A DNA stretch of 64,000 nt from an uncultured Chloroflexia bacterium (lineage in GTDB: Bacteria; Chloroflexota; Chloroflexia; Thermomicrobiales; UBA6265), in the NCBI GenBank assembly GCA_963849635.1, contig CAWKIA010000040.1:145022-209021 (forward strand), written 5' to 3'. Both the position numbers and the translations under genes were made by a program. This document shows, one piece after another, positions 4,250-54,088 of this stretch; positions within the stretch are counted from its first letter, which is position 1, and every line of letters starts with the position of its first letter. Under the pieces are notes generated by a model. The model did not search any database, had not been told where the DNA came from, and saw only the letters and a program-made list of their open reading frames with translations.

Positions 4250-5041
4250 CTAATCGCGCAGGCCGGAGATACCCCCGTCGACCGGGATGTTGGCGCCGGT
4301 GATGTACGAGGACTCATCGCTGGCCAGGAAGAGCATGGCGTAGGCGATCTCGCGTGGTTCGGCCTGGCGGCCGAGAAGCGTGTGCGGGGCGCCGGCGGCG
4401 CGCATCGCCGCTTCGGCCTCCTCTGGGGTCTCGCCAGTCCGCTTGACGCGGTTGCGGATGTGGAACTGTGTCAGGGTCGGGCCGGGTGAGACGGCGTTGA
4501 CCCGGATGCCCTCCGCCGCATGGTCGCAGGCCATCGAGCGGGTGAGCGCCAGGACGGCGTTCTTGGTGGCGTCGTACTGGCCCATGCCTTTGCGGCCAAC
4601 GGTCGCGTTCGCCGACGAGATGGTGATGACGCTGCCGGCGCCGTGCTTGACCATCTCCGGGATGGCGAACTTGCAGCCATACGCAACGGCGAGCAGATTG
4701 ACGGCGACGACGAAATCCCACGACTCGACCGTCGCCTCGGTCACCGGGCCATGGACGCGCACCGCGGCGATGTTCGCCAGGACATCGAGCCTGCCAAATC
4801 GCTCGATCGTTTCACGGACCGTGCGCTCTGCCTCGGGCTCCTTGGTCAGGTCGGCGGCGATTGCCCCGATGCGGTCGCCACTCGGGTCGATTCCGTCGGC
4901 GGCTGCCTTGGCGGCATTGCCATCGACGTCGACGATCATGACTTTTGCGCCCTCCTCCCAGTAGAGCCGCGCGGTCGCTTCGCCGATTCCACCGCCGCCA
5001 CCTGTAACCAAAGCAACCTTGCCCGCCAACCGCTCGCCCAT
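4250..5041 (-). CDS. SDR family oxidoreductase
   Basis: ORF 4250..5104 trimmed to the ATG at 5041 (MGERLAGKVALVTGGGGGIG), which is preceded by GGGGAGGA. YxxxK is present as YDATKNA. The stop codon is TAG. Confidence 0.85.
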   Translation of the reverse strand: MGERLAGKVALVTGGGGGIGEATARLYWEEGAKVMIVDVDGNAAKAAADGIDPSGDRIGAIAADLTKEPEAERTVRETIERFGRLDVLANIAAVRVHGPVTEATVESWDFVVAVNLLAVAYGCKFAIPEMVKHGAGSVITISSANATVGRKGMGQYDATKNAVLALTRSMACDHAAEGIRVNAVSPGPTLTQFHIRNRVKRTGETPEEAEAAMRAAGAPHTLLGRQAEPREIAYAMLFLASDESSYITGANIPVDGGISGLRD

Positions 5042-6985: not shown

Positions 6986-8584
6986 ATGCTGGAACGGACG
7001 AATTCGCACACGGACGTCGCCCGGCAGTTTCACCGGGCGACGAAGTACGTTTCCGTGCCTGATGCGGCGGGCGAAGAGACCTTCATGATGGGCTCACCGC
7101 CGGACGTCGAGAACGCGATCTGGGAAGAAGACTGGTCCGTCGAGCCGTTCCCCTTCAAGGTCTACGAGACGCTCGATCCGATGCCGCTGCCGCGGGATTT
7201 CCCGGCGACCGCCATGCCCGCGCTGGACGCCATCGCCCGGAGCGGCGACGAGCCGGCCGGGGAGCGCGTGCCCGATCTCGCGGCGCTCGCCCGCATCGGC
7301 CTGCTCTCCAACGGCATCCTCAAGCGCGGTTCCCACCGGCCGGGTGGCCAGGTCATCGAGTACCGCGCCGCCGGGGGCACCGGCGCCCGCTACCACCTGG
7401 AGCTGTACTTCGCGTGCGGCGACCTGCCGGACCTCGCCGCCGGTCTCTATCACTACTCCGCCCAAGACCATTCGCTGCGGCAAATCCGGAGCGGTGACGT
7501 CCGCTCGATCCTGGTCGCGGCCGCTGGACGCGAGCCCGGGCTCGCCACGGCTCCCGTCGTGCTGGCGATGACCAGCACTTTCTGGCGCAACGCCTGGCGG
7601 TACAAAGGCCGTGCCTACCGCCACGCCTTGTGGGACGCCGGCACGTGCTTCGCCAACGTGCTCGCGCTCGCCGCTTCGGCCGAGTTGCCCACCCGGCTCG
7701 TTCTCGGCTTTGCCGACGGTCCCGTCAACGACCTGCTCGGGATCGACGGCCACCGCGAAGCGACCCTCGCGCTGTGTGCCATCGGTCGGACCGGGAACGA
7801 AGCGCCGCCCGCGCCAGCCATCCCCCCGCTCGACCTTCCGACCAAAGCGATCTCCTCGTACGAGGTCGACTTTCCGGTGATCGGCTTGATGCACGCGGCG
7901 TCCACGCTTGCGTCGGGGGACGAGGCTGCGGCATGGCGGGGCGACCCACTTCGCCGCGAGACGCCCGAACCAATTGGCGACTTGATCCCACTTCGGCCGA
8001 TCCCAGACGCGGACATCCCGGCTATGTCGGTCGAGGACATCATCCGGGGCCGCCGCTCGACCCGTAACTACGACACGGAGACCCCGATCGGTTTCGACAC
8101 GTTCTCGACCCTGCTCGATCGGTCGATGCGCGGAGTTGCCGCCGATTGCCTCGCGCAGGGTGCGCTGCCGCTGCATGACCAGTACCTCATCGTCAACAGC
8201 GTCGACGGCCTGACGCCCGGCGTCTACCGGGTGCATCCGAGCCGGGGGGCGATCGAGTTGGTCAGGGCGGGAACGTTCCGGAGCCAGGCTCAGCGGCTGG
8301 CCGTCGGGCAGGAGGCCCCGGGCGACGCCCACGTGAACAGCTATTACCTGACCGAACTCGATCCCGTCTTGGAGCGCTACGGCAATCGCGGCTACCGGGT
8401 AGCGCAACTGGAAGCCGCGCTCTCCGGCAGCCGGCTCCACCTTGGAACCCATGCGCTCGGCCTGGGTGCGGTTGGATCGACCTCGCTGGATGACGAGGTT
8501 GTCGAGTTCTTCACGCCGGGTGCCGCCCGAGCGAGCTACATGTTCGTCGTCGTCTTCGGGAAACGCCGGCGCCGGTCCGGGTAG
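6986..8584 (+). CDS. SagB/ThcOx-type tandem nitroreductase-fold dehydrogenase
   Basis: ATG at 6986 lies 10 nt after GGAGGAG. The N-terminus VARQFHRATKY resembles the start of SagB-type dehydrogenase domains. The second half carries IIRGRRSTRNYD, typical of the nitroreductase fold. About 530 aa, consistent with two nitroreductase-like halves. Confidence 0.65.
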   Translation: MLERTNSHTDVARQFHRATKYVSVPDAAGEETFMMGSPPDVENAIWEEDWSVEPFPFKVYETLDPMPLPRDFPATAMPALDAIARSGDEPAGERVPDLAALARIGLLSNGILKRGSHRPGGQVIEYRAAGGTGARYHLELYFACGDLPDLAAGLYHYSAQDHSLRQIRSGDVRSILVAAAGREPGLATAPVVLAMTSTFWRNAWRYKGRAYRHALWDAGTCFANVLALAASAELPTRLVLGFADGPVNDLLGIDGHREATLALCAIGRTGNEAPPAPAIPPLDLPTKAISSYEVDFPVIGLMHAASTLASGDEAAAWRGDPLRRETPEPIGDLIPLRPIPDADIPAMSVEDIIRGRRSTRNYDTETPIGFDTFSTLLDRSMRGVAADCLAQGALPLHDQYLIVNSVDGLTPGVYRVHPSRGAIELVRAGTFRSQAQRLAVGQEAPGDAHVNSYYLTELDPVLERYGNRGYRVAQLEAALSGSRLHLGTHALGLGAVGSTSLDDEVVEFFTPGAARASYMFVVVFGKRRRRSG

Positions 8585-8660
8585 CCCGCCTGCCAAGAAC
8601 GGGTCGACGCCACCCGGCGAACGGACCGGATGGGGATCGGGTTCGACCACCGCGCGGCTA

Positions 8661-8692
8661 CGGTGAGGGGCTCGTCATCGAGCCCCTCACCG
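8661..8692 (+). terminator. Perfect 14-bp GC-rich hairpin downstream of the SagB-like gene
   Basis: CGGTGAGGGGCTCG tcat CGAGCCCCTCACCG, read directly from the sequence. It lies ~80 nt after the stop at 8584. There is no U-tract, so terminator function is uncertain. Confidence 0.3.
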
Positions 8693-9308
8693 AGGCCGAG
8701 GCGCCGGAGGCGGTCGCCTCCGTGCGGGCAGCGCTCGACGTCCGCGCCCGAGCTGGGCCGATTGACGGGAGATCGGGACGGCGCTATCGTGTTGTTCTGG
8801 TGATCAGAACAGCGGAGCGTGGTGGCGGTGGGCCGGCTCACGATTAGGCAGTTCCGGCGGAGCAGCCTCCCGGCGGCGGTGGCGCTGATGGAATCGGCGG
8901 TCGCTGATCCGGCGGACTCCAGCCGGGCCGCCAGCACGAGGTGGAACGCGCTGGCGGAGGCCGCGCAGAACCGCTTCCCGATCGACGCGATGTCGACAGT
9001 GCGCGGGCCGCTGGAGCGAGGCATGGGGCGGAGCCGAGCGCCGAAGTCGGGTTGCGGCGGTACGGCGATCTCCGCTTCGGCGTCAACTCCCACCGCCGCG
9101 TGGAGGAGGCGATCGAGGCAGGGGAGCCCTAGCGGGCGAAGGTCTATTTCTTCGGGATCATGGGGCGTCACCACGAGTTCGTCTTGGGCCTCTCCGGCTC
9201 GGGCGCGACCCCGGATGCCGACGGACGAGCAGCGGCGGCATGACGGCGGCGGGGCGGCCGCGGGAGACCGCCGCCGTGTCCTGCCCGACATCGCAGCGAG
9301 GAGGCGCC

Positions 9309-10277
9309 ATGGAGGTCGCTCCGGGGATTCACCGGATCGAAAGCGTCCTGGGACCGCGGCCGTTTGCCCAGTATCTGCTGCGGGACGAGCGGTCGCTCCT
9401 GGTCGATAGCGGGGTGGTCTCGACCCCGGATGAGGTCATCCTGCCCTATCTGCGCCGGATGGGGATGGACCCGGCCGATCTCGCGTACGTCCTCATCTCG
9501 CACGCCGATGTCGACCACTTCGGTGGGACGGCCAGGATCGTGGCGGCCGCGCCGCGGGCGGTGGTGCTCGCGCATGCGCTGGACGCCCCGTGGGTGGCCA
9601 GCGGCGAACGCATCCTCCGAGAGCGCTACGGCTGGTACGAGGCCCACGGCCCGGCGGTGGACTACGACGCCGGGACGAAAGCGTGGCTGCGGGGGGCGCT
9701 GGGACCGGATGTCCCGGTCGATCTGGCGCTGCGCGGCGGGGAGACCATCCGGCTGGGGCCGAACCTGACGGTCGAGGTGCTGCACCTGCCCGGGCACACC
9801 CCGGGTCACGTCGGGCTATGGGAGCCGGTGAGCGGGACGGCGATCGTCACCGACGCGGTGCTGGGCGCTGGCCTCCTGGATACGGAGGGCCGGGTGATCC
9901 ATCCGCCGCCGTACTTCGACGTGGCGGCATACGCGGCCACGGTCGCGGCGGTGCGCGCGTTGCGACCGAATCGGCTGCTGACCGCCCATTTCGCGGTGAT
10001 GGAAGGGGCGGAGGTCGAGGCGTTCCTGGACGCGAGCGACGACTTTATCGTCCGAGCGCGGGCCGCCGTCGCCGAGATCCTGGCCGGATCCGGCGAGGTC
10101 GATCTCGCGGCGCTAGCGGCCGGCGCCGACGCGCGGCTGGGGCCGTTCACGTCGATGGCGAACGAGCTGGCGGGGACGGTCCGCGCCCACGCCGACGAGT
10201 TGGTGGCCGCGGGGGCGGCGCGTTCGGAGCCAGGGTCCGGTCGGTGGCGGGCGGTGACCAGCGGTGGGTCCTGCTGA
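9309..10277 (+). CDS. MBL-fold metallo-hydrolase
   Basis: ATG at 9309 (MEVAPGIHRIE) follows GAGGAGG. Metal-binding motifs are SHADVDHFGG and HLPGHTPGH. Confidence 0.8.
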   Translation: MEVAPGIHRIESVLGPRPFAQYLLRDERSLLVDSGVVSTPDEVILPYLRRMGMDPADLAYVLISHADVDHFGGTARIVAAAPRAVVLAHALDAPWVASGERILRERYGWYEAHGPAVDYDAGTKAWLRGALGPDVPVDLALRGGETIRLGPNLTVEVLHLPGHTPGHVGLWEPVSGTAIVTDAVLGAGLLDTEGRVIHPPPYFDVAAYAATVAAVRALRPNRLLTAHFAVMEGAEVEAFLDASDDFIVRARAAVAEILAGSGEVDLAALAAGADARLGPFTSMANELAGTVRAHADELVAAGAARSEPGSGRWRAVTSGGSC

Positions 10278-15537: not shown

Positions 15538-17952
15538 ATGCGGACGGTGTGCCGGGCGTCTCGTGGTCGGGTGCCTATGCCGTTGACGGCGCTATTCGGC
15601 CGGGAGCAAGAAGCGGCGCTTGCCGTTTCGTTGTTGCGGCGGGACGATGTGCGCCTCTTGACGCTAACCGGGCCGGGTGGAGTCGGTAAGACTCGGCTGG
15701 CGATCAAGATCGCGGACGAGGTCGCGGAGCTGTTTCGCGACGGCGTCCGGTTTGTCTCGCTGGCGGCGGTGACCGCCGATGACCAGGTCGCCATAACCAT
15801 CGCCCACGCGTTTGGGTTAGTCGGGGCCGGCGACATTCCCGTGCTGGACACCCTGACGGCGTATCTGCGCGATGCCGACCTGTTGCTCATCGTCGATAAC
15901 CTTGAGCATGTGCTGGAAGCAGCTCCTCTCCTGACTGTTCTCCTCGGGGAATGTCCGCGTCTCAAGATCCTGGCAACAAGCCGGACCCTGTTGCGGCTCG
16001 CCGGCGAGCAAGCCCTCCCGGTGCCGCCGCTGGGAATGCCCGAACCAAGCTCGGAGACCCTGTACGAAGAGATCACCGATTCGGCCGCGGTCGCGCTCTT
16101 TGTCAACCGGGCGCGGGCTGTTTCGCCGTGGTTCGACCTGACCGCGGAATCGGCGCCTGTGGTCGCCGAGATCTGCCGGCATGTAGACGGCCTGCCGCTG
16201 GCGATCGAGCTGGCGGCGGCCCAGATCAGGGTGCTTGCGCCGCTGCAACTGCTTGAGCGGGTACGCGCGCACTTGCCGCTCCCGCTCACCGGTCCGCGCG
16301 ATGTGCCGGTGCGCCTGCGCTCCGTGCGTGACGCGGTCGCCTGGAGTTACGGTCTGCTGACGGCCGACGAGCAGTCGCTCTTCCGATGCCTTGGCGTCTT
16401 CGTCGGCGGCTTCGGGCTCAACGCCGCCGAAGTCGTGAGTCGTGAGTCGAGAGACGTGAGTAACGAGACGGCGAGCAGTTCTCATGACTCACGACTCACG
16501 ACTCACGACTCAATGCTTGACGGCCTGATCTCCCTCGTCGAAAAGAGTCTGGTGAAGCAGGAGCCCTGGGAGGGGGAGTCCTGGGTGGGAGAGCCCCGCT
16601 ACTCCATGCTCGAGACTATCCGCTCGTTTGCGCTGGACCAATTGATCGGGAGCGGTGAGGAGGACGCGGTGCGCGATGCGCACGCGGAATGGTGTTTGAG
16701 CCTGGCGGAGGGGACCCTCCAGGCGACCTTCCTTCCGGGTGGTCAGCAGGAGTTGTGGCGCCTGGAAGTCGAGCATGCCAACCTGCGGGCCACGCTCAAT
16801 TGGCTCGATCGACGGGGCGACCACGATCGCCTGCTGCACCTGGCTACCGCGCTGGGCCGGTTCTGGTTCTTGCACGGTCACTACGATGAGGGGCGCTCGT
16901 GGTTGGAACGGGCGTTAAGTAACTCCCAGGGAGCCGCGCCCCTCGCCCGGGCTCAAGCGCAATATGAGCTGGGCCAACTCCACTACGTCCAGGGTGAGCG
17001 GGAGTGTGGCGAGGCGCTCTTGGAGAAGAGCATCGATGTCCTGCGCGAGCACGACGACGTCCTGCCGCTCACAGGTGCGCTCATTTGGAAGGCCTGGACC
17101 GCGATCTTCCGCGGGGACTACGATCAGGCCGAACGCGATCTTGAGGAGGCCATTGGCTGGGCGGCGACCGTCCCGGATCCGGCGGTCGCCGCCTCCGCGA
17201 CAAGCAGGGTGCTGTCGAACCTCGGCGTGGTCGCGCACGAGCGGGGTGACCTCGAGACCGCCCGTGCGCGGCACGAACGGGCCCTGCACACCTGCCGCGA
17301 GCTCGGCGACGTCATCGGCGTCATCCGCTCGTTGCACGACCTCGGCGATGTTGCCTGTGACCAGACCGACTACACCGGAGCGATCGCCTCCTACCGCGAG
17401 TGCCTGACGCTGCAGGGCAATCGGATGCATCCACTCGTCGTCGTTAATGTGCTGGCCAGATCGGCGCTGGCCGCGGCGGCCTGGGGGCAACCGGAACGGG
17501 CGGCGCGGCTGCTGGGCGCGGCGGAAACGGCGCGCGAGCGGTTCCGGCTCGGGGTTGAACTGCCGGCCGAGCGGGCCGCGCACATGCGGGCGGTCGCGCT
17601 CGTCCGCCTGGCGTTGGGAGAAGAGAACCTCCGAGCTGCCTGGCAGGCCGGGCGCCGTCTTCCCCTGGCGACGGCCATCGCCGAGGTGCAGGCCCTGGCG
17701 CTGCCCGCGGCGGCCGCCGGGGCCATCGACCGCCCCTCCTCCGGGCTATCGCCCCGGGAGGAGGAAGTCCTCCGCCTCCTCGTGGCTGGCCAGTCCGATC
17801 GCGAGATCGCCTCGAAGCTCTTCATTAGCGTGCGCACCGCAGAGGGACATGTCTCCCGCGTCCTCGCCAAGCTCGAGGCTCCATCGCGGGCAGATGCCGT
17901 CCGCATCGCGACCGCGTCCGGGCTGACTGCCGGGCTTCACCGTCCCAAGTAG
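15538..17952 (+). CDS. STAND ATPase / TPR / LuxR-family transcriptional regulator (R2)
   Basis: 804-aa ORF with [24 protein letters not shown] and a C-terminal LuxR HTH ([45 protein letters not shown]). The start is uncertain (15538 or 15577). Confidence 0.85.
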   Translation: MRTVCRASRGRVPMPLTALFGREQEAALAVSLLRRDDVRLLTLTGPGGVGKTRLAIKIADEVAELFRDGVRFVSLAAVTADDQVAITIAHAFGLVGAGDIPVLDTLTAYLRDADLLLIVDNLEHVLEAAPLLTVLLGECPRLKILATSRTLLRLAGEQALPVPPLGMPEPSSETLYEEITDSAAVALFVNRARAVSPWFDLTAESAPVVAEICRHVDGLPLAIELAAAQIRVLAPLQLLERVRAHLPLPLTGPRDVPVRLRSVRDAVAWSYGLLTADEQSLFRCLGVFVGGFGLNAAEVVSRESRDVSNETASSSHDSRLTTHDSMLDGLISLVEKSLVKQEPWEGESWVGEPRYSMLETIRSFALDQLIGSGEEDAVRDAHAEWCLSLAEGTLQATFLPGGQQELWRLEVEHANLRATLNWLDRRGDHDRLLHLATALGRFWFLHGHYDEGRSWLERALSNSQGAAPLARAQAQYELGQLHYVQGERECGEALLEKSIDVLREHDDVLPLTGALIWKAWTAIFRGDYDQAERDLEEAIGWAATVPDPAVAASATSRVLSNLGVVAHERGDLETARARHERALHTCRELGDVIGVIRSLHDLGDVACDQTDYTGAIASYRECLTLQGNRMHPLVVVNVLARSALAAAAWGQPERAARLLGAAETARERFRLGVELPAERAAHMRAVALVRLALGEENLRAAWQAGRRLPLATAIAEVQALALPAAAAGAIDRPSSGLSPREEEVLRLLVAGQSDREIASKLFISVRTAEGHVSRVLAKLEAPSRADAVRIATASGLTAGLHRPK
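16431..16512 (+). repeat. In-frame heptamer-armed perfect hairpin inside R2
   Basis: 16431-16449 AGTCGTGAGTCGTGAGTCG is the exact reverse complement of 16492-16510 CGACTCACGACTCACGACT. The arms are tandem GTGAGTC / GACTCAC heptamers. Confidence 0.9.
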
Positions 17953-18010: not shown

Positions 18011-18047
18011 CTCGAACACGTACTCGAACACGTACCGATACGTATCG
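18011..18047 (+). promoter_or_regulatory. Candidate operator: 12-nt direct repeat followed by a 12-nt perfect palindrome
   Basis: CTCGAACACGTA occurs twice (18011-18022 and 18023-18034), followed by the self-complementary CGATACGTATCG (18036-18047). It lies in the 170-nt gap between the R2 stop and the 18125 gene. Confidence 0.25.
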
Positions 18048-18124
18048 ATTCCGGCTCACCGCGGGCATAGAGTCGAATTCACACTCGATGCCGTGAGGCA
18101 AGATCCAATTCGAGGGAGACAGGT

Positions 18125-20847: not shown

Positions 20848-20979
20848 CGCCTAAGGCATCCACGCCCCGTCCGGTATATAGGAGCTCTATGTACACGGCG
20901 CCCACGAACAATTGGCAGCGACACCGAAGCTTTGTCCTTTGCCGAGCGTTGCACTCCATCGCATGTATTAATGTTGGGG

Positions 20980-27957: not shown

Positions 27958-30630
27958 TCAGACGAGGCGGTGCCGCATGGCGTGGGCCACCGCGGCGGAA
28001 CGGGAGGGTTGGCGAAGTTTGGCTAGGATCGCCGAGACATGCGTTGAGGCGGTGCGGCGGGTGATGGAGAGTGCGGCGGCGATCTCGCGGTCTGACTGAC
28101 CGCCGACCAGCAGGTGCAGAACTTCCATCTCGCGGGGCGTCAACCCGGCGTGCAAGGACGGCGGGTGGCCGTCGGACAAGGGAGTATCTTCTGCCCTGGC
28201 CTCGCCGTCGTCTGCTTCGCCGCCGGCCACGGCAATCGCCTCGGCGACGGCGTCGGCAAGCGGCAGCGCGGCGCCTTCTACCCAGGCGGCCGCAAACCCC
28301 GCGGCCCCAAGCGCTGCCTGGGCGTCGGCCTCGATTTGGTCGTGCATCGCCTGCTCCTGTGGTGCGAGTCGCGCGCCGACCACCTCGCGCAGCGTTGCCG
28401 CCGCGCCCAGCAGCCTCGTCGCCTGCTCGGCCCTCCCCACCAGGGCGGCGACGCCGGCTTGGCCCATCAGCCCCCAGGCGATCCCCGTTCTGTCGCCGAG
28501 CGAGACCGAAAGGGCCAGAGCCTCGGCCTGGGCGCGCCTCGCACTACGCCCATCGCCGCGTGCCAGGGCGAGATGGCCAAGCTCATCGAGCACGCCGGCA
28601 ACGAACCGCCAGTCCTGCCGCTCACGAAAAACCGCCAGCGCTTCCTTGAGGTAGACGTCGGCGCGGACATGGTCGCCCTGAGCGAGCGCCAAAATGCCCT
28701 GCTTGCTTCTGGCGAGGGCGGCGCCCCATGTATCGCCAATAGCTCGGAAGTGGGCGAGGCTCTCCGCCAGCAGCGGCTCCGCCTGAGGCAGCTCTTCTCG
28801 ATCGACCGCGTCGCTACCCAGGCCGTACAGCGCCATCGCCACGCCCCACGCGTCACCGAGGGAACGCGCCAGTGCCTCTGCCTCACCGTGCCGGGAGAGC
28901 GCATGCTCGTTGTCTTTCTGCCACGCCGCGATGTCCCCCGCGACGATGAGCGCCCGGATCCGGACAAGTGAGACGCCTTCGACCTCCGGCAGCGCCAGGA
29001 ACGAGTCGAGCCAGGTGCGACCCTCACTCAGGAATCCGCGTCTCCACCAGAACCGCCCGGGGGCCGTGGCGAGTCGGAGCCCCTCTGCTATGCGCCCCCG
29101 TACGCGCAGCCAGCCCAGCGCAGCCCGCAGGTTGGGAAGCTCCTGCTCTAGCAGGTCGAGCCAGGCGAGTTGGTCGGGGCCGATCAGGTGCGGCTCTGCC
29201 TCCGCCGCCAGTGCCAGGAAGTAGTCGGCATGGGCGTCGTGGGCGGACTCCGCGTATCCGCTCGCCGCCAGGTGCTCCAGGGCGAACTCGCGGATCGTCT
29301 CCAGCATCTCAAAGCGCGGGGGAACGATGTCGGACCCGTCGGCCAGCGGCTCCATAGATCGCAGCAGACTCTTGTCCACCAGCGAGGCGACCACGTCGAG
29401 CGTCGAGCGTTGTGCGTCGAGAGAACTACTTGCCGTCTCGTCTCGCCCGACGCTCGACGCTCTCCTCACGACTTCCGCGGCATCGAGCGTGCACCCCCCG
29501 ACGAACACCGCAAGGCGCCGAAAGAGCGACTGCTCCTCGCTGGTGAGGAGATCGTAGCTCCAGGCGATCGCACCGGCCATAGTCTGGAGTCGCGTCGGCG
29601 CGTCGCGCGGCCCGCCTGTCAGGAGCGGCAGACGGCGCTCCAGGCGCGCCAGGAGCGCCGGCGGCGAGAGGAGGTTCATTCGCGCGGCGGCCAGCTCGAT
29701 CGCCAGCGGCAGGCCGTCGAGGCGTTGGCAAATCACCGCGACCGCGGTGGAGTTACCGTCGGTGAGGCGGAAGTCGGCGTTCACCGCCCGTGCTCGCTCG
29801 ACGAAGAGACGGACTGCCGCCGGCCCGGCCCGCTCCTCGGCCGGCGCGAGTTCCCGCTGAGCCTCCACGTCAGGATCGCGCAGCGCCAACGGAGGCAGGG
29901 CGAAGACGTGTTCACCCGAGACTCGCAGCCGGGCGCGGCTTGTGACCAGCACCGTCAAGCGCGGGCAGGCCGTGAGCAGCTCCGGCAGGAGAGGCGTCGC
30001 CTCGACGACGTGCTCGACGTTGTCGAGGACCAGCAGCAACTGGCGGTCCCGTAGGGCCATGGTCAGCGTCTCGATCAGCTGCCTATCGACTGACTCGCGC
30101 ACACCAAGGGCCTGAGCGATTGTTGGGGCGACCAGAGCGGGCTCGCGGACCGGTGCCAGCGGCACGAAGACGACCCCGTTCGCGAAGTCGCCGCCCAGCG
30201 CCTCAGCAACGTGCAGGGCGAGGCGGGTCTTTCCCACCCCACCGGGACCGGTCAGCGTCAGGAGGCGGATATCTTCCTGGTGCAGCAGCGCGCAAACCGC
30301 CGCCACGTCGCGTTCGCGGCCGATGAGCGGCGTCAGCGGCAGCGGCAGCCGCGCGGCGCTATTCGCGCCGAGTCGGTCGGTGGTCAGCCTCTGAGGCAGA
30401 GGCGGGTGGCGACCCAGGAACCGTGTCAACGCGGCCGGCGTGATCCGGTAGACGCCGCCATGCTTCGTCGCGGCCAATTCACCGCCGACGATGGCACGCC
30501 GTACCGTGCGCTCGCTGACCCCGAGCGCAGCTGCCGCCTCGCGGGCCGTCAAGCGTCCGGACGGGCGCCGCGCGGACCGAGATTTGTCCGGTCGTTTGTC
30601 CGCCGGAATGTCCGCCGGGATCTTGCTCAT
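27958..30630 (-). CDS. STAND ATPase / TPR / LuxR-family regulator with extra N-terminal excisionase-type HTH (R3)
   Basis: ATG at 30630 (MSKIPADIP). The N-terminal HTH is [46 protein letters not shown]. It also has [24 protein letters not shown], and a C-terminal LuxR HTH ([43 protein letters not shown]). Confidence 0.85.
29395..29465 (-). repeat. In-frame heptamer-armed hairpin inside R3 (counterpart of the R2 element)
   Basis: On the plus strand, GTCGAGC occurs twice (29395-29408) and GACGCTC twice (29449-29462). 29398-29410 GAGCGTCGAGCGT is the exact reverse complement of 29450-29462 ACGCTCGACGCTC. Confidence 0.9.
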
Positions 30631-30969
30631 GGTGGGCGTATCATGCCCGACATCGCCCGTCGCAGCAAGGAAAGCGGGCCACGTTGCTGCGTCGACGCGG
30701 ATCGACTGAAGACGGCTCGAACCGGCCAAAATGGCGTGGTCGTACCGCCATCGCACAAGTAAACTCCGGAGCTGAAACGAGGGCCGGGGGGCGAGTGCAT
30801 CGCCTGCGCGACACCGGCGAATCCTAATGTCAGTTGGCACGTCCGGCAGCGACAGGCAAGGCTCGTCTACCGAGAGCCGCCAGCGATTCGATAGGCTGCC
30901 CCTTGACGCCGGGAACTCGCGCTATCATCTTCGTGTAGTCCCGCAATCCTGTGACGTCGAGGTCGCCTC

Positions 30970-33412
30970 ATGCTCCGGTTGATTGCCGATGAGCCCGATT
31001 CGCGGTCGCTACTGGCGTCCCAGCGGGATGGCCGGTCGCTTCCAACTGCGCCGCTGCCGTCTCCGCTGACCTCGCTGGTCGGGCGAGAGCGGGAGGGCGG
31101 CGAGATCCGGGCGTTGATCCGGCGACCCGATGTGCGGTTGGTGACGCTGACCGGCCCGGGTGGCGTCGGCAAGACCCGCCTGGCGGTCTGGGCAGCGGAG
31201 GACCTGGATGCCGACTTTCCCGGCGGCATCGCCTTTGTCGAGCTGGCCGCGATCCGGGATCCGGCGCTCGTCGTCGCGACGATCGGCCACGCGCTCGGCC
31301 TGGCCGACACCGCCGGGGACGCCCTGGTCTTCCGCCTCCAAGACGCGCTCCGCGCCGGGCGGGCCTTGCTGATCCTCGACAACCTGGAGCAGGTCGTGGC
31401 CGCGGCGCCGTCGCTGGCCGCGCTGCTGGCCACGTGTCCCGGCCTCACCATCCTGGCGACCAGCAGGGAGATCCTGCGCCTGTCCGGCGAGCAGGAGGTC
31501 CGGGTGCCGCCGCTGGAGGCCGAGGCGGTCGCCCTGTTCGTCGCGCGGGCCGGGGATGTCCGTCCCGATCTCGATCTCGGCGGGTCCAACCTGGAAACGG
31601 TCGCTCAGATCTGCGCCCTGCTCGACGGCCTGCCCCTGGCGATCGAGCTTGCGGCGACCCGCCTGCGGTACCTCTCTCCCAAGGCGCTGCTGGGCCGGAT
31701 CGACGACCGGCTGACTCTTGCTCGCGGGCGGGGCCCGGGACCTGCCGGACCGGCAGCGGACGCTGCGCGACGCGATCGCGTGGAGCCACGACCTGCTGTC
31801 CCCCGAGGAGCAAGCCCTCTTTCGCCGCCTGGCCGTCTTCTCCGGGGGCTTCACCCTCGACGCCGCTGGGGCGGTCGCCGGAGAGCTATCCCCCTCCGTC
31901 TTCGACGGCGTGGCCTCGCTCCTCGACAAGAGCCTGCTCACCCGGAGTGAGGAGGCGGACGGCGATCCGCGATACGGGATGCTGGAGACGATCCGCCACT
32001 TTGGGCTGGAGCGGCTGGCGGCGACCGGCGAGGCCGACGAGGTTCGCCGTCGCCACGCCTTCTGGTGTCTGGACCTCGCCGAGCGGGCCATTGCCGAGGC
32101 CGGCGGCCCGGAGCACGTGCGCTGGCTGCGCCGGCTAGACCGGGAGCATCCCAACCTTCGACAGGCGATGACGTTCGCTGAGGAGCAGGGAAATCCCGCC
32201 CTCGGGCATCGGCTCGTGGCGACGCTCTGGCGATTCTGGGACGCACAAGGGTATCTGGATGAGGGGAGCGTTTGGGCGGAGCGCCTGCTGAAGATCGGGA
32301 GCGGGGACGAAACGATCGACCGGGCGGCCGCGCTGGGTGCGGCCGCCATGGTCGACTTCCGCCAGGGCAACTACCCGAGGGCGGTGGAACTGGCGGAGGA
32401 GGGTCTAGCGCTCGCCCGCGAGCTGGACGCCCCGGACGCCGCCGCCCAGGCGGTCACCGCCTTGGGTAACATCGCCTTCACGAAGGGGCAGCACGCCGAC
32501 GCGGTGGCATGGTACGAGGAGGCGGTCGCCTTGGGGCGTGCCTCTGGCGGCGTCGACCGGCTCCTCAACGCCCTGACCAACTTCGCCATGGCGTTGACGG
32601 TGGCCGGGGATCTGGACCGGGCGGAGGCGGTCGTGGACGAGGCGTTGGCCCTGAGCCGGGCGCGGCAGCGCCGGTTCTGGGAGGCGGTCGCCCTCGCTCG
32701 TCAGGGTCTTCTTGCCCGCCATCGAGACGCGCTCGAGACAGCCTCCAACAGCTACGAAGCAGCCCTGGCGTCACTCGGGGACGGCAACGCCAGGGTTGTG
32801 GCGGGGTTGCTTTGGGACGCCGCTGATGTCGCCCGCGAACGGGGGGACCTGCCGCGGGCCGCGGCGTACCTGAGGTCCAGTCTCCAGCGCCGGTGGGCCT
32901 GGATGGAGCGGCGCGGTATCGCCGAGTGCCTCGCCGCGCTGGCCGAACTGGCCGTTCGCGCCGGGCGCCCAGAGCCAGCCCTGCGTCTCTCTGGGGCGGC
33001 AGAGGCGCTGCGCCGCGGGATTGGCATCCTCGATTCGTGGCATCTTCAGCCTCGCCGTGCCGCCGCGCTTGTGACCGCGCGCCGGGCGCTGGGCGAGGCG
33101 GCCGGAGAGGCGGCCGTCGCGTCTGGGCAATCCCTGCCGCTCTTTGAGGCGGTCGAGCTGGCGATGTCCGTTGCCGAGGCGATCCAGGCGGATCCCATCC
33201 CGCCGGCGGTGCAGCCGGTCCACGGCTTGACCAGCCGCGAGGTGGAGGTCTTGCGCATGGTCGCGACCGGGCAGTCCGACCGGGAGATCGCCGAAGTGCT
33301 GTTCATCAGCCCCCGTACCGTCCAGGCCCATCTCACCAGCATCTACAGCAAGCTCGATGTCAAAACCCGCACGGCCGCCGCCGCCGCCGCCCACCGCCTC
33401 GGGATCGCCTGA
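30970..33412 (+). pseudogene. STAND ATPase / TPR / LuxR-family regulator (R4), single frameshift
   Basis: ORF 30970..31950 ([24 protein letters not shown]) and ORF 31718..33412 (…[45 protein letters not shown]) join as ...RIDDRLT|[27 protein letters not shown], matching R1 [34 protein letters not shown]. There is an apparent extra T at about 31717-31719. Confidence 0.75.
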
Positions 33413-33506: not shown

Positions 33507-34631
33507 TCAGCGATGGTACTTGCGCATCACCTCCTGCAGCCGGGATAGCGGAATCGCATGGGAGGTGCGGCCGGCGACGCCGGTGGTCGTCGTCGCCATG
33601 CACAAGGCGTTGACGATCGCCTCCTGGGTCGCGTCGGCGACGGCTTCGAAGAGCACGCTGATTGCGTCGTTTGGAACCATCTGGACGGTGGCGGGCGCGA
33701 TCGTGCCGCGCGCATCCAGACCGCGAGCCGCGGTTGAGAATGCCAGGAAGAGGTCGCCGCTGCCGTTGTCGCCGTTACCACCAACACGGGCGACCCCCAT
33801 GGTCGCCCGTTGGGCAATTCGCTTGCACTGGTGCGGGAGGAGCGGCGCATCGGTCGCGACGATGACGATGATCGACCCGTCGCCCGCCGGCTTTGCCCGC
33901 TGCGATGGCACCTCCGACAATGGGATCTCTCGTCCGACGGGGACGCCGTCGACGTGGAGGTGCTCCCGCCAGCCGTAGTTGGCCTGGACGAGCACGCCGA
34001 CGGTCCATCCGCCCTGATCCGCCGGCAATACTCGCGACGATGTCCCCGTCCCGCCCTTGAATTCGTGGCACAACATCCCGGTGCCGCCACCGACGCAACC
34101 TTCCGCGACGGGGCCGCTCGCGGCCGCGTCGAGCGCGGCGAAGACGTGCTCCGGTTTGACATGGAAGCCGTGCATATCGTTGAGCCAGAGGTCGCTCGTC
34201 TCAGCGACGACCGGCAAGCGCCACGGCATCGTACCCGGGCCGTTCCAGCGGGAGACATCGTAGGCAACCAGGGCGTCGCGGACAACGCCGACGCTGTGGG
34301 TGTTCGTGATCCCGACGGGTGTCGTCAGCAGCCCCGACTCCTCGACCCAGTGGAGCCCGGTCATCTCGCCTGCGCCATTTAGCCGATGGTAGCCGGCGAA
34401 CACAGGCTCCGCCGCGATGTCCTCGCGTGGGACGATCATGGTGACGCCGGTGCGCACCGGTCCCTGTCCGATCACCAGCGGGCCATCGCCCGCGATCAGG
34501 GTTGTATGCCCGACGCGGATCCCATCAACATCGGTGATCGCGTTCCATCGCCCGGTGGCGAACCGGCCGATGCTGATACCGAGCTCACGTGCACGCACTC
34601 GCACCTCCGTAGGTGCGGCCCCTGTCCCCAT
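33507..34631 (-). CDS. P1/S58 family peptidase (DmpA-like L-aminopeptidase/D-esterase)
   Basis: Start trimmed to MGTGAAP. The protein contains NAITDVDGIRVGHTT, GGTGMLCHEFKGGTGTSSRV and VATDAPL, typical of the DmpA/BapA family. Confidence 0.8.
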   Translation of the reverse strand: MGTGAAPTEVRVRARELGISIGRFATGRWNAITDVDGIRVGHTTLIAGDGPLVIGQGPVRTGVTMIVPREDIAAEPVFAGYHRLNGAGEMTGLHWVEESGLLTTPVGITNTHSVGVVRDALVAYDVSRWNGPGTMPWRLPVVAETSDLWLNDMHGFHVKPEHVFAALDAAASGPVAEGCVGGGTGMLCHEFKGGTGTSSRVLPADQGGWTVGVLVQANYGWREHLHVDGVPVGREIPLSEVPSQRAKPAGDGSIIVIVATDAPLLPHQCKRIAQRATMGVARVGGNGDNGSGDLFLAFSTAARGLDARGTIAPATVQMVPNDAISVLFEAVADATQEAIVNALCMATTTTGVAGRTSHAIPLSRLQEVMRKYHR

Positions 34632-34809
34632 TCGAGCCCTCCATGAAAATGAGTATCCGGGCCGTTGTAAGCGATTGACCACCACTGAGACCCATCATAT
34701 ACTGCGGCCCACGCTCGGCGAGTCCCATACGTTGACCCATCGCCCGTTCTCCGGCCTTTGCTGTCAGTGCGCTGCACAACAGCCCGGAGACATCACCAGG
34801 GGAGGCAGA

Positions 34810-36453
34810 ATGGTGTCGAAGTCCGCGTCGTCGCTCAACCGTCGACGGTTCGTCCAGGGCAGCGCGGCGCTGTCCGCTGCGCTGGCAATGAGCCGTCCAG
34901 CGTTCTCTTCAAACGCCGGCGCCCAGGAGGGCGGCGAACAGGTCTTGCGGCTGGCCTGTGAGGAGCCAGAAACGTTCGACCTGGGGACGATCGGTGGTGG
35001 GATCGGTATCCAGTGGGCCAATCACCTGTTCGAAGGTCTCGTTGTTTACGACTGGGAGAATCAGCAGGTTGTGCCGGGCGCGGCCGAAACCTGGGATATC
35101 TCCACCGACAATCTGACCTATACCTTCCATCTTCGCCCGGGGATGCTCTGGAGCGACGGTTCGCCCCTGACTGCCCACGATTTTGAGTACGCGATCAAGC
35201 GCAACCTTGAACCCGAATTGGCTGGGCCGCTTGCCACCTTCCTCTACCCCTTGAAGGGCGCGGAGGACTATTTCGTTGGCACCACCACCGACCCGGCGAC
35301 GGTCGCGGTGACGGCGACCGACGACGTCACCTTAGAGATGACGCTGATCGGGGTGACGCCGTACTGGTTGAGCATCCTCTCCCTCTGGACCGCGATGCCG
35401 ATCCCCAAGGCGGCGATCGACGCCGCTGGCGTGCAGTGGATGGAGGCCGAGACGATCGTCAGCAACGGCCGCTACACGATGGAGTCGTGGGAGCACGACC
35501 AGAGTCTTGTCATGGTCCAAAACGAGAACTACTACGGCACGAAGCCCAGCGTCACCCGCATCGAGTACACCATCTTCGAGAACCCACCGGAGCAAGCCCT
35601 CACGGCCTTCCAGACCGGCGATGTCGATCTTGCCCAGGTGACGGTCGCCAACGCTGACTTCGTCGCTGGCGATTCTGAGCTCAGCGCCTTACAGATTCGC
35701 CAGGAGGTCTCTGGGACGTGGGAACTGCGGCTCGACATGGCCAACGCGGACTCGGCCATTGCCGACGTCAACGTCCGCAAGGCGCTCTACCTGGCGATTG
35801 ATCGTGAGGTACTCACCCAAACCGTGCTCAAGGGGTTCATGACCCCGGCCTACATCTTGACGCCGCCCGACATCCCGTCCCACGATCCGGCCGGTCGCCT
35901 TGAAGGGACGGTCGAAGACGCTAAGCAGTATTTGGCTGACGCTGGATTCCCCAATGGCGATGGGTTTCCCGGTATTCAGCTTGGCTTTGCCGCGGCTCAG
36001 GAGAATGCGCAACTCGTCTCGGAGGCGATCGTCCAACTGTGGAACGACAACCTCGGGATCACGAACGCGACGGCGTTTGCCGTTCCGACCGACTGGCGGA
36101 CGCGGATCAGGACCGAGCCCTATGACATGTACCTCGGCCAGTGGGTGACAGACTATCCAGATCCGCACGAGTGGCATAACGTCGTCCACGAAGGCGACGC
36201 CTGGCAGAGCCACTGGAAGGACCAGACCTATCTCGACATGATCGCCGCGGCCAACGTCGAGGTCGATCCCGCCAAGCGGCTCGAACAGTACGCCGCCGCC
36301 GAGGCCTATATGATCCGCGACCAGACGGCGACGATTCCGCTCTACACCGTCGGTCGCTTCTGGGTCATCCAACCCTGGGTTCAGGGCCTGGCGCTCTCAC
36401 CGTACGACGGCCCGATTCTGACCACGAACGCGGTGACGATAACCGATCAGTGA
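34810..36453 (+). CDS. ABC transporter substrate-binding protein, family 5 (peptide/nickel type)
   Basis: ATG at 34810 follows GGGGAGG. The Tat-like signal is MVSKSASSLNRRRFVQGSAALSAALAM. The ~548-aa length and sequence fit DppA/OppA-type SBPs. Confidence 0.85.
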   Translation: MVSKSASSLNRRRFVQGSAALSAALAMSRPAFSSNAGAQEGGEQVLRLACEEPETFDLGTIGGGIGIQWANHLFEGLVVYDWENQQVVPGAAETWDISTDNLTYTFHLRPGMLWSDGSPLTAHDFEYAIKRNLEPELAGPLATFLYPLKGAEDYFVGTTTDPATVAVTATDDVTLEMTLIGVTPYWLSILSLWTAMPIPKAAIDAAGVQWMEAETIVSNGRYTMESWEHDQSLVMVQNENYYGTKPSVTRIEYTIFENPPEQALTAFQTGDVDLAQVTVANADFVAGDSELSALQIRQEVSGTWELRLDMANADSAIADVNVRKALYLAIDREVLTQTVLKGFMTPAYILTPPDIPSHDPAGRLEGTVEDAKQYLADAGFPNGDGFPGIQLGFAAAQENAQLVSEAIVQLWNDNLGITNATAFAVPTDWRTRIRTEPYDMYLGQWVTDYPDPHEWHNVVHEGDAWQSHWKDQTYLDMIAAANVEVDPAKRLEQYAAAEAYMIRDQTATIPLYTVGRFWVIQPWVQGLALSPYDGPILTTNAVTITDQ

Positions 36454-36461
36454 GCTGATTG

Positions 36462-36574
36462 AGGCGTTAGGCGTTAGGGGAACGGCCCCCTAACCCCCCG
36501 GCCCCCTTCCCCCTGCTGCGGCAGGGGGAAGGGGGTGACGCCCTGCCACTCCGAGCGGCTAACTCCTAACGCCT
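36462..36574. repeat. Composite REP-like palindromic element between SBP and permease genes
   Basis: The outer arms are GGCGTTA GGCGTTA (36464-36477) and CTAACTC CTAACGC C (36559-36573), pairing 10 bp plus 5 bp. An inner hairpin GTTAGGGG..CCCCTAAC is present. A perfect 15-bp hairpin CCCCCTTCCCCCTGC tgcg GCAGGGGGAAGGGGG spans 36502-36535. Confidence 0.75.
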
Positions 36575-36588
36575 AAGGGCACCTGTTC

Positions 36589-37515
36589 ATGCGCGCATTT
36601 CTCATCCGGCGATTGCTCAGTTTTATTCCCACGATGCTACTCTTCTATACCCTTGTTTTCATCCTGATCCAGTTGACGCCGGGGAACCCGTGGGACACCG
36701 CGGAGAAGCCGTTCCGGCCGGAGGTGCTCGCGGCCCTCGAAGACAAATACAACTATAGCGACCCGGTCTGGAAGCAATACGTCGATTACCTGGAGCGCGT
36801 CGTCTTTCATCTCGACTTTGGCCCCAGCTACAAGCGGAATGTCGATTCCAACGAGATCGTTGCGCGCTATTTCCCGGTGTCGCTTCAGCTTGGCGCCGTC
36901 GCCTTTGTGATCGCGATGGTCTTCGGCATCGGGCTCGGCGTGCTCTCCGCGGTCAGGCAGAACACCATCACGGACCATCTGGCGATGCTCTTCTCGGTGA
37001 TCGGAGTGGCGACGCCGAGCTTCGTCGTAATTACGCTAATGGTGATTTTTCTGGCGGTTGAGCTCCAATGGCTGCCCGCCTTTGGCTGGGATGGGATCTT
37101 CAGTACTCGGATCATCATTCCGGCGGTCGCGCTTGCGTTAGGACCGATGGCGGTGATCGCACGGTACACGCGGGCGTCGATGCTTGAGACGATCCGCCAG
37201 GACTACGTCCGGACCGCCCGCGCCAAAGGTCTGGGCGAACGCCCGGTGATCATTCGCCACGCATTGCGTAATGCCCTGATCCCCGTCGTGACCGTCGCGG
37301 GGGTAGCGCTCGCCGACCTGATCACCGGTTCGTTTTTCGTTGAAGCGATCTACGGCGTTCCCGGGATGGGCCGCTACTTCGTCAGCACGGTGGCAGATAA
37401 GGACTACCCGGTGCTGATGGCCGTCACCCTTCTGTTTGCCGCGCTCATCTGGCTAATGAACTTCCTGACCGATGTCGCCTACGCGGTCCTCGACCCGCGC
37501 GTGAAGGTGAAGTAA
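36589..37515 (+). CDS. ABC transporter permease (DppB/OppB-like)
   Basis: 308 aa, with N-terminus MRAFLIRRLLSFIPTMLLFYTLVFILIQLTPGNP, multiple TM segments and an EAA-type loop region. Confidence 0.9.
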   Translation: MRAFLIRRLLSFIPTMLLFYTLVFILIQLTPGNPWDTAEKPFRPEVLAALEDKYNYSDPVWKQYVDYLERVVFHLDFGPSYKRNVDSNEIVARYFPVSLQLGAVAFVIAMVFGIGLGVLSAVRQNTITDHLAMLFSVIGVATPSFVVITLMVIFLAVELQWLPAFGWDGIFSTRIIIPAVALALGPMAVIARYTRASMLETIRQDYVRTARAKGLGERPVIIRHALRNALIPVVTVAGVALADLITGSFFVEAIYGVPGMGRYFVSTVADKDYPVLMAVTLLFAALIWLMNFLTDVAYAVLDPRVKVK

Positions 37516-38477: not shown

Positions 38478-38720
38478 GGCGTTGGGCGTTCGATGGTTGC
38501 TTCCAGCCGAACGCCGAACCCCGTCAGGAGGAACTGCGCATACCCACCAACCGTCATCCTGAGCTTGCGAAGGATCTTGGCGCTTCAGCGCCTTCGTCCT
38601 CGTTGGAGAAGACGAAGCTTCGCGGTCGGCAGCAAAGGCCGTGAACGGCCAAGATCCTTCGCTCCGCTCAGGATGACAGGTTGCCTGTTGCAGACGCACA
38701 ACGCCCCAACCCTTAACTCC
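38478..38720. repeat. MITE/REP-like palindromic element (GTCATCCTGAGC family) with GGCGTT heptamer flank
   Basis: It starts directly after the stop codon with GGCGTTG GGCGTTC (38478-38491). There is a local hairpin GGCGTTCG..CGAACGCC (38485-38492 / 38508-38515). The long arms are 38553-38580 GTCATCCTGAGCTTGCGAAGGATCTTGG and 38649-38677 CCAAGATCCTTCGCTCCGCTCAGGATGAC (12 + 14 bp perfect). The right flank is AACGCCCCAACCC. Confidence 0.75.
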
Positions 38721-53231: not shown

Positions 53232-54088
53232 ATGCCAGGAATGCCAGGAATGCCAGGACGCCAAGAACTGCTGCCGACCGCCGCGTCGCGGTCTCGCTCA
53301 CCTTCGACTTCGACGCCGAATCGGCCTGGCTGGGTGCCTTCAAGGTCGACACCCCGTCTGCCCTTTCCCGGGGAGCCTACGGCGCGAACGAGGGCGTGCC
53401 TCGTATCCTGCGCCTGCTTGAGAAGTACAGCCTACCCGCGACCTTCTTCATCCCCGGCGATACCTGCGACCGCCATCCCGACGTGGTCCGCGCCATCGCG
53501 GCCGCCGGCCACGAGATCGGCCACCACGGCTACCTCCACGAGGCCCCCCACCTACTCAACCCCGAGGAAGAGCGGTCGATGATCGAGCGTGGCCTCGACG
53601 CGATCGACCGCATTACAGGAACCAAACCCCTTGGCTACCGCTCGCCGTCCTGGGAACTCTCAAAGGCGACATTCGGCCTTCTGGAGGAGTACGGCTTTGA
53701 CTACGACGCCAGCCAGCTCGCCCGGGATCGGCCCTACTGGGTCGAGGACGACGGCCGCAAGACGGACATGGTCGAGGTCCCGTCCGCCTGGGAGCTTTGT
53801 GACTCCGCCCATTTCCTCTTCGCCTACAACCCCGTCTACCTGATGGGGATGAGCGGCCCATCGAAGGTCGAAGAGATCTGGCGCGAGGACTTCAACGGGA
53901 TCTACGAGGAGGGCGGCGACGGCTGCTACGTCCTGACGATGCACCCCCAGATCATTGGCCGCCACCACCGCATGCAGATGGTGGAGCGGACCATCGACCA
54001 CATCCTCGCGCACGACGGCGTCTGGTTCGCCCAGATGAAGGACATCGCCCAGGATTTCCGGCAGCGGGCCGCCGCGAATGCCGCCTAG
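53232..54088 (+). pseudogene. Polysaccharide deacetylase (CE4) family protein, N-terminal frameshift
   Basis: The only start codons (ATGCCAGGA x3) are in a frame offset by one from the deacetylase frame (RVAVSLTFDFDAESAWL…PATFFIPGDTCDRHP…GHHGYLHE), and that frame has no start before the GTG at 53396. An indel is inferred at about 53262-53275. Confidence 0.75.

Follow-up and report, generated by a model that had tools for sequence, protein, structure and literature searches.

The gene for a LuxR-family STAND regulator, here termed R2, contains within its reading frame an 84-nt foldback element whose two arms are tandem arrays of heptamers. R2 lies in a 64,000-nt stretch of contig CAWKIA010000040.1 from an uncultured Chloroflexia bacterium (this whole stretch is referred to as the window), and the element, as aligned with its paralog R3 and with orthologs, occupies positions 16429–16512 of the forward strand and contributes 28 codons. 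It is translated in frame, its building blocks are dispersed over several loci, and it is present in some orthologs and absent from others. It also turns over rapidly, in steps of three units and with avoidance of stop codons, and nothing suggests that it has an independent function. We propose that the R2 element probably belongs to a family of small foldback elements dispersed in Thermomicrobiales and is tolerated in a low-confidence surface loop of the protein.

R2 is encoded on the forward strand at 15538–17952 and comprises a P-loop NTPase domain (AAA/NB-ARC), a winged-helix part, TPR repeats and a GerE (LuxR-type) helix-turn-helix (HTH). Translation likely starts at 15577, since the database protein P0001, which is 100% identical, has 791 amino acids. 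The source names of R2 homologs point to Thermomicrobiales, Chloroflexota. The element is read in frame within the open reading frame (ORF) 15538–17952 as ..EVVSRESRDVSNETASSSHDSRLTTHDSM.. and is located between the conserved motifs VFVGGF..AAE and SLV(D/E)KSL. An AlphaFold2 model of R2 was built from 29 homologs (mean predicted local distance difference test score, pLDDT, of 83). It places helices at residues 294–309 and 323–336, and residues 312–321 have pLDDT values below 50. The insert is thus modelled, with low confidence, as protruding between two helices of the winged-helix part, which agrees with the linker position given in the initial annotation. Among 66 family members taken from the window and the metagenome matches listed, 51 have a linker of 34–40 residues; it measures 53, 49, 66 and 35 residues in R2 and the window paralogs R3, R1 and R4, respectively. 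A metagenome scan with the family alignment returned, among the matches listed, only distant paralogs (35–45% identity), which were used as the background set. Just downstream of R2, at 18011–18049, is a perfect direct repeat of a 12-mer in 2.1 copies (CTCGAACACGTA).

The perfect left arm of the element at 16431–16449 (AGTCGTGAGTCGTGAGTCG) is the exact reverse complement of 16492–16510 (CGACTCACGACTCACGACT), with a spacing of 42 nt. A repeat finder extends the stem imperfectly to arms of 33 nt (16436–16468 and 16480–16512; 88% complementarity), and the predicted fold has three single mismatches and a terminal loop of 13 nt. Since pairing continues imperfectly beyond the perfect 19-nt arms, the ∼42 nt first described as the hairpin loop is the separation of the perfect arms, and the loop of the folded hairpin is only 13 nt. 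As RNA the hairpin has a folding energy of −50.4 kcal/mol (z=−6.75, with none of 200 shuffled sequences equally stable) and as DNA a z score of −6.0. Tandem Repeats Finder reports period-7 arrays at 16431–16461 and 16481–16512. The left array (16435–16469), to which the perfect left arm belongs, consists of GTGAGTC, GTGAGTC, GAGAGAC, GTGAGTA and ACGAGAC, with the two perfect units at 16435–16448 and degenerate units thereafter. The right array (16486–16513) consists of three copies of GACTCAC followed by GACTCAA and includes the perfect right arm. Direct reading and the repeat finder therefore agree with the perfect 19-nt arms, the heptamer arms and the in-frame translation originally reported. 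The loop core CGAGACGGCGAGCAGTTCTC (16464–16483) is common to R3 and to the orthologs P0002, P0004 and P0005, and a homologous sequence forms the centre of an intergenic element described below.

The window was scanned for two exact tandem p-mers followed by their reverse complement within 150 nt. Three cases were found with p=7 (at 16431, 29394 and 36462) compared with none in Markov shuffles, and the window yielded no tandem-armed inverted repeats with p=6 or p=8–11. Hence, the architecture is real and specific to a period of seven. A terminator or promoter role for the R2 element was rejected, as it has no T-run and no consensus match. The GAGTC/GACTC units were also considered as GANTC (CcrM-type) methylation sites, an assignment rejected on the ground that the P0003 and R3 units have no GANTC. 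An Rfam search with the element, at gathering thresholds and at permissive E-values, returned nothing meaningful. A profile search for the duplicated element peptide in unrelated proteins gave 24 candidates, none at E≤10.

The paralog R3 (27958–30840, reverse strand; 45% amino-acid identity to R2) has an R2-like domain architecture with an additional N-terminal HTH_17 domain and carries a second copy of the element at 29392–29475 on the reverse strand. This copy is also 84 nt in length, with arms of GAGCGTC/GACGCTC and the loop core CGAGACGGCAAGTAGTTCTC. Its start GAAGTCGTGAG and the core CGAGACGGCRAGYAGTTCTC are those of the R2 element, which bears out the homology claimed at the outset. The equal codon length also claimed applies to the elements but not to the linkers, that of R3 being four codons shorter overall (49 versus 53 residues). 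The R3 hairpin is weaker than that of R2 (z=−2.8). The two paralogs are 55% identical as genes and 75% identical within the element, and the nearest relatives of R3 (59–60% identity) have no element. R3 has no database match above 62%, though R2 is present at 100%, and the R3 gene may be uncalled in the source record. As first described, R4 (31718–33412) has no insert, with its 35-residue linker, and the longer R1 linker of 66 residues shows no excess folding (z=−0.6). A frameshift near 31715 divides R4, the fourth of the LuxR-STAND paralogs, into two ORFs that overlap (30970–31950 and 31718–33412), and R4 is a pseudogene unless the frameshift is an error of assembly. The frameshift was rejected as the scar of an element as it is ∼40 codons upstream of the winged-helix loop.

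The building blocks of the R2 element, arrays of the GTGAGNC heptamer and a GAGACGGCAAG or octamer core, recur outside the regulator genes. The pattern GTGAG.CGTGAG.C has 13 matches at seven loci in 200.5 kb of Thermomicrobiales-like DNA compared with 0.1 in Markov shuffles, so that the same tandem unit occurs at several loci above chance. Such heptamer arrays are also present in six IMG/VR contigs. An intergenic relative is on L125, a contig from the metagenome that yielded P0003 and P0005. At 8925–9090 it has arms of (GAGACGT)x5 and (GTCTCAC)x3 around a centre that aligns with the in-gene loop core. The P0005 element matches the minus strand of this centre with a score of 52 (z=13.7), in an alignment that includes GAGACGGC[A/C]AGACGGC[A/C]AGTAGCTCT, and the P0003 element matches the centre with z=18.5. 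In a second L125 element (9636–9850), (GCGGCAAG)x3 and (GTCTCAC)x4–5 stand on opposite sides of a different dispersed hairpin. The latter is a repeat of ∼125 nt (GTCATCCTGAGC..GCGAAGGATCTTGGC ... GCCAAGATCCTTCGC..GCTCAGGATGAC) found in the window at 38552–38678 and on L125 at 9680–9800. The window copy is without repeat-array arms and the L125 copy is between an octamer array and a heptamer array; a BLAST search of the 38545–38685 repeat against a plasmid collection gave no match.

A second heptamer family (RGGCGNN/GCGTCGN) provides the arms of R3 and the left side of the P0002 element, and recurs in two intergenic hairpins. One of these, at 36462–36576 on the forward strand of the window, consists of (AGGCGTT)x2.4 ... 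CTAACTCCTAACGCCTAA around a G5/C5 hairpin core and has the architecture of the R2 element with this different heptamer family. It is situated between the gene for an ABC substrate-binding protein (34417–36453) and the first permease gene (36589–37515). The other, a YAGGCGY-family hairpin at 4455–4595 of L126, from another Thermomicrobiales metagenome-assembled genome (MAG), is likewise between binding-protein and first permease genes. The RNA folds of the two have z scores of −4.4 (window) and −3.95 (L126). The G5/C5 core (CCCCCTTCCCCCTGC....GCAGGGGGAAGGGGG) at 36485–36540 is seen again at 20940–20995 of L125.

Comparison of orthologs reveals both the presence and absence of the element and its rapid change. 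An insert is found at this site in five close orthologs (79–93% amino-acid identity). The positional orthologs P0006 and P0010 (72–74% nucleotide identity), which have the R1-like gene upstream and the same downstream genes as R2, have a plain 35-residue linker without the element. No direct repeat was found flanking the filled site in comparison with these empty orthologs, where the palindrome blurs the boundaries. The linkers of R2, P0003 and P0004 have an equal length of 53 codons and that of P0005 has 54. In nearly all units the P0003 arms are GTGAGAC/GTCTCAC, compared with GTGAGTC/GACTCAC in R2, and the P0004 arms mix GTGAGTC and GAGAGTC on the left with GACTCCC and GACTCAC on the right. 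In P0002 and P0005 the hairpins have decayed (z=+0.6 and −0.3, respectively) and the loops are enlarged by an octamer array, (AGACGGCA)x3–4. R2 and P0002 are 97.2% identical over the gene (2,283 nt) and 70.2% identical over the 84-nt element, a divergence about ten times that of the gene. Unit copy number also varies between related sequences: P0005 is shorter than P0002 by 21 nt (three heptamers) of right arm, and R2, P0003 and P0004 are shorter than P0002 by 24 nt (three octamers).

The ORF is open across the element in R2, R3 and the five orthologs. A third perfect left unit, GTGAGTC or GTGAGAC, would read TGA in the frame used, and the third left unit deviates in both R2 and P0003. The right-array unit is stop-free in the frame used and is perfect three to four times. 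Since the third unit is altered exactly where TGA would arise, the sequences point to visible selection on the open reading frame, acting against perfect arms. A broken relative is found on L002, where an R1-like paralog at 8043–9846, beside an R2 ortholog, is N-terminally truncated. It has a short GTGAGAC hairpin in its winged-helix loop, together with an in-frame TAG and a frameshift, indicating that insertion or slippage in this loop can break the gene.

The initial annotation had suggested that complementary arm substitutions reflect selection on the hairpin itself or continual repair of its pairing. To quantify covariation, the seven elements with available DNA were aligned and the R2 pairing register was imposed. 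Standard pairs occupy 76% of the cells compared with 28–45% when the partner is slid by one to three columns. Ten pairs are changed on both sides (shuffle mean 6.7, reached by 21 of 500 shuffles), and the covariation score is 0.137 compared with 0.084 in shuffles (reached by 2 of 500). The arms therefore do co-vary, if modestly, and the complementary differences that had been noticed are real, most clearly between R2 and P0003. The stepwise compensation originally read from R2 and R3 is not upheld. Since GTGAGNC and RGGCGNN/GCGTCGN arrays exist in complementary form at other loci, the R2/R3 difference is better described as two heptamer families, each recurring elsewhere. In the paralog P0212 the left array (GGCGGGA)x3.7 is not complementary to the right array (CACGACT)x3.6, the change having been homogenised within one arm and left uncompensated. 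Among non-Watson–Crick cells on the sense strand, 8 are G·T, 9 are A·C and 43 are other combinations, with no bias to wobble pairs. The decay in P0002 and P0005, the non-complementary arrays of P0212 and the parity of G·T and A·C all speak against a hairpin that is itself selected. The element does not behave as a conserved structured RNA, having no Rfam match, losing its hairpin in P0002 and P0005 and being uncompensated in P0212. A 33-bp RNA stem is expected to be a substrate for a double-strand-specific RNase and an obstacle to ribosomes; no sign of selection for either was seen.

The winged-helix loop is a general hotspot for inserts, and heptamer-armed hairpins are widespread. In a paralog from another metagenome (L042; 43% identity), the same loop contains an unrelated heptamer hairpin, GACCACA/GTCCGTG. 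In P0054, encoded at 10001–12424 of L125, the loop contains a translated 150-nt G5/C5 hairpin, the whole linker having a folding energy of −149.5 kcal/mol. Related peptides of the type SRE.R..SRE...DSR..T.D are encoded by many paralogs, and P0044, P0049 and P0219 have peptides similar to the P0054 loop peptide. The winged-helix loops of P0125 and P0165, available as proteins only, contain TLNVQTLERSNVQTFKRSNV-type peptides with a period of eight residues, as expected if they were encoded by a (AACGTTCA)n octamer array, whose unit has the self-complementary AACGTT. Outside genes, L058 has three GTTCTCA/TGAGAAC hairpins around different centres, an Acidobacteria MAG (L027) has a heptamer-armed hairpin of other units, and L075, as read by eye, has one between two tRNA-like genes. 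In the examined loci one tandem-armed hairpin of period 8 was found and none of period 9–11. Two phage-classified, high-GC IMG/VR contigs (L130 at 8100–8330 and L131 at 100–300) have hairpin arms of AGTCGAA and AGTCGTG heptamers, in up to eight and three units, just upstream of the start of an opposite-strand gene. Two further repeats of the window are an inverted repeat at 550–591 (GGCGATCCGGTCGCCGTCCA / TGGACGGCGACCGGATCGCC), with 20-nt arms that match perfectly and are 2 nt apart, inside the ORF 463–1707, and a perfect 9-mer in three copies at 53232–53258 (ATGCCAGGA).

In the explanation that we favour, the stems of this dispersed foldback family would be tandem heptamer arrays around the short core GAGACGGCAAG, which could be expanded into octamer arrays, and the extra residues would be tolerated in the low-confidence loop of the winged-helix part. 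Selection, directed at the reading frame and not at the hairpin, would keep the R2 gene open. Units would be gained and lost by replication slippage, and within genes only net changes of three units, or paired +1/−1 changes, would survive, so that arrays could replace adjacent native codons without any change in length. Arms may in addition be replaced from other copies or paralogs by short-patch conversion, and intrastrand template switching at the quasipalindrome may re-make their complementarity. The complementarity of the arms would then mainly reflect the way in which the DNA is copied and repaired, and would decay in some lineages. Any effects on the mRNA, as a target of RNase III or a site of ribosome pausing, or on the protein loop would be incidental.

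Several observations weigh against this explanation. The window and the loci yielded no transposase, target-site duplication or mobility signature, though no systematic transposase search was made. Six in-gene copies share the same loop orientation and frame, a pattern more easily explained by descent, or by gene conversion between paralogs, than by several independent insertions. Native codons of orthologs lacking the insert can be aligned with the outer arm positions, and some of the arm sequence may therefore have arisen in place instead of arriving with the element. Near-perfect hairpins are kept in R2, P0003 and P0004 at 53 codons despite ∼15% gene divergence, which would allow some constraint on pairing. 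Within the window the core is common only to R2 and R3. Among 185,579 representative genomes, which do not include the source genome, the loop core GAGACGGCRAGYAGYTCTC has 37 single matches in unrelated taxa, close to a rough estimate of ∼35 expected by chance under uniform base composition, and is not a dispersed repeat there. The one Chloroflexota match of that scan, L018, was rejected as a true copy, being a chance match in a membrane-protein gene. A profile search for the duplicated element peptide in unrelated proteins gave 24 candidates, none at E≤10.

The alignment of arms with native codons is the starting point for an in situ origin, in which a short quasipalindrome native to the loop grew by heptamer slippage and template switching and the lookalikes arose independently or through gene conversion between paralogs. 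Native orthologs carry GAC TCC ACG, which is close to GACTCAC, and GTG ATG CGA ... TCG at the arm positions. The codon length of R2, P0003 and P0004 is nearly that of the core-only form of P0005 (53 versus 54), as if arrays had overwritten native codons. L063 has a strong short hairpin in a linker of normal length, all in-gene copies have the same loop orientation, and the heptamer hairpins of unrelated units in very different bacteria (L027, L058 and L075) would suit a general mutational process. We nonetheless consider this origin unlikely. The non-repetitive core and the same heptamer also occur in intergenic elements unrelated to the gene, specific heptamers are found at many loci far above chance, and R2 and R3 are much more alike in the element than as genes. 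A hairpin selected as a functional RNA or DNA, for example as an intragenic processing or attenuation site for the regulator, with truly compensatory arm changes, would account for the very stable fold (z=−6.75), the complementary unit changes between R2 and P0003 and the covariation above shuffles. It would also suit the position of the intergenic relatives, which separate ABC binding-protein genes from permease genes; hairpins at such sites have a known stabilising effect on the mRNA upstream. Such selection is very unlikely given the decayed hairpins of P0005 and of P0002, whose gene is 97.2% identical to R2, the non-complementary arrays of P0212 and the empty positional orthologs P0006 and P0010. 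The lack of a sense-strand G·U excess, of an Rfam family and of any terminator- or promoter-like signal argues in the same direction, as does an element diverging roughly tenfold faster than its gene between R2 and P0002.

A contingency (phase-variation) switch, in which a single heptamer gained or lost would alter the frame and so switch the regulator off or on, had also been raised at first. It is suggested by a unit length that is not a multiple of three and by the L002 paralog with its GTGAGAC hairpin, in-frame TAG and frameshift. We regard it as highly improbable: the five orthologs are all in frame with length differences of 21 and 24 nt, that is three units at a time, the L002 paralog is also N-terminally truncated and has the look of a decaying gene, and an array of only 2–4 perfect units would be short for a phase-variable tract. 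It is just as improbable that the insert is an adaptive hypervariable protein loop, in which diversity driven by simple sequence repeats (SSRs) in a surface loop of the winged-helix part tunes activation of the regulator. The loop does vary strongly in length within the family, with long linkers in ∼35 of 86 R3-like homologs and in 15 of 66 paralogs taken from the metagenome matches listed and the window, and the inserted peptides are hydrophilic, with much Ser, Thr, Arg and Asp. Against this, the peptide sequence is dictated by palindromic DNA, model confidence is low there and the same DNA modules are found intergenically. A broader conjecture, which we consider doubtful, is that of a hitherto undescribed, self-propagating class of prokaryotic repeats. 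It would be a high-GC counterpart of cyanobacterial STRR with Foldback-like architecture, spreading across loci, phage-like contigs and paralogs by hairpin- or homology-dependent copying, and its STAND-loop copies would be targeted or selected as a hypervariable cassette that tunes expression or activation.

The proposed family shares features with several known systems. Rickettsia palindromic elements (RPE) are in-frame palindromic repeats translated as extra peptides at permissive sites compatible with the fold (PMC10969869). The comparison with RPE made at the outset is apt, in that the R2 element is likewise a short palindrome, in frame and translated at a permissive site, with the gene unbroken. 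However, RPE are ∼150 bp in length, form defined sequence families and are found in many unrelated genes, whereas the R2 element is 84 nt with tandem-heptamer arms. At the loci examined its genic copies were found only in the winged-helix loop of LuxR-STAND paralogs, the other copies being intergenic. With genic copies restricted to a single loop in a single gene family, the R2 element is not a member of RPE, to which no sequence relationship is expected in view of its phylum and GC content. Heptanucleotide SSRs are over-represented in prokaryotes, with polymerase slippage as the proposed cause, and inverted-repeat arrangements of heptamers were reported by Rehm in 2015 in Xanthomonas and Nostoc (PMC4692102, PMC4679880). 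Examples include GGGAATC in Xanthomonas, GGGGAYT in Nostoc and TAACTGA in Beggiatoaceae, and the cyanobacterial STRR (PMC4692102, PMC4679880). Like these, the R2 family consists of genome-specific tandem heptamers at many loci. It differs in phylum (Chloroflexota) and in the heptamers themselves, and while STRR and heptamer SSRs are described as mostly intergenic, the R2 arrays are translated hairpin arms with three-unit steps and stop avoidance. The initial suggestion that the form was undescribed thus holds in part: heptamer excess and inverted-repeat arrangements had been reported, and our literature search turned up no account of such repeats, heptamer-armed and in frame, either for STAND regulators or for Chloroflexota.

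Like MITE and REP/BIME elements, the R2 family is small, hairpin-forming, dispersed and without coding capacity. Its arms, in contrast to theirs, are composed of SSR arrays and not of fixed terminal inverted repeats. No target-site duplication, parent insertion sequence or RAYT/transposase link was seen for the family, for which no RAYT search was made. REP/BIME elements carry a conserved 5′ motif of the GTAG type; a GTAG is seen in the R3 loop, the corresponding letters of R2 being GCAG. In E. coli, REP elements are located between binding-protein and permease genes, as in malE–malF, a position like that of the intergenic relatives. Eukaryotic Foldback (FB) elements have inverted arms of variable short tandem repeats around a variable centre. 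They are of kilobase scale, some with coding capacity, and their likeness to the R2 element is architectural only. Template switching at quasipalindromes makes imperfect inverted repeats more perfect and can give rise, in one event, to changes that look compensatory (PMC7202029). As at the quasipalindrome hotspots of E. coli thyA and T4 rIIB, an imperfect inverted repeat within a gene would have been made more perfect in R2. Those are single mutational hotspots, whereas the R2 element is a dispersed repeat with tandem-unit arms, for which template switching is proposed.

The R2 element documents an RPE-like in-frame repeat in Chloroflexota, in which the interplay between homogenisation of an SSR and maintenance of the reading frame is clear. 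It also indicates that apparent compensatory covariation within coding sequence can stem from repeat dynamics, such as slippage of units, replacement of arms and template switching, and not from selection for a structure, which calls for caution in covariation-based RNA discovery. More broadly, the unexplained excess of heptanucleotide repeats in prokaryotes is linked here with a specific hairpin architecture seen in several phyla, and a mechanism of dispersal, if identified, could explain the spread of STRR-like heptamer families.

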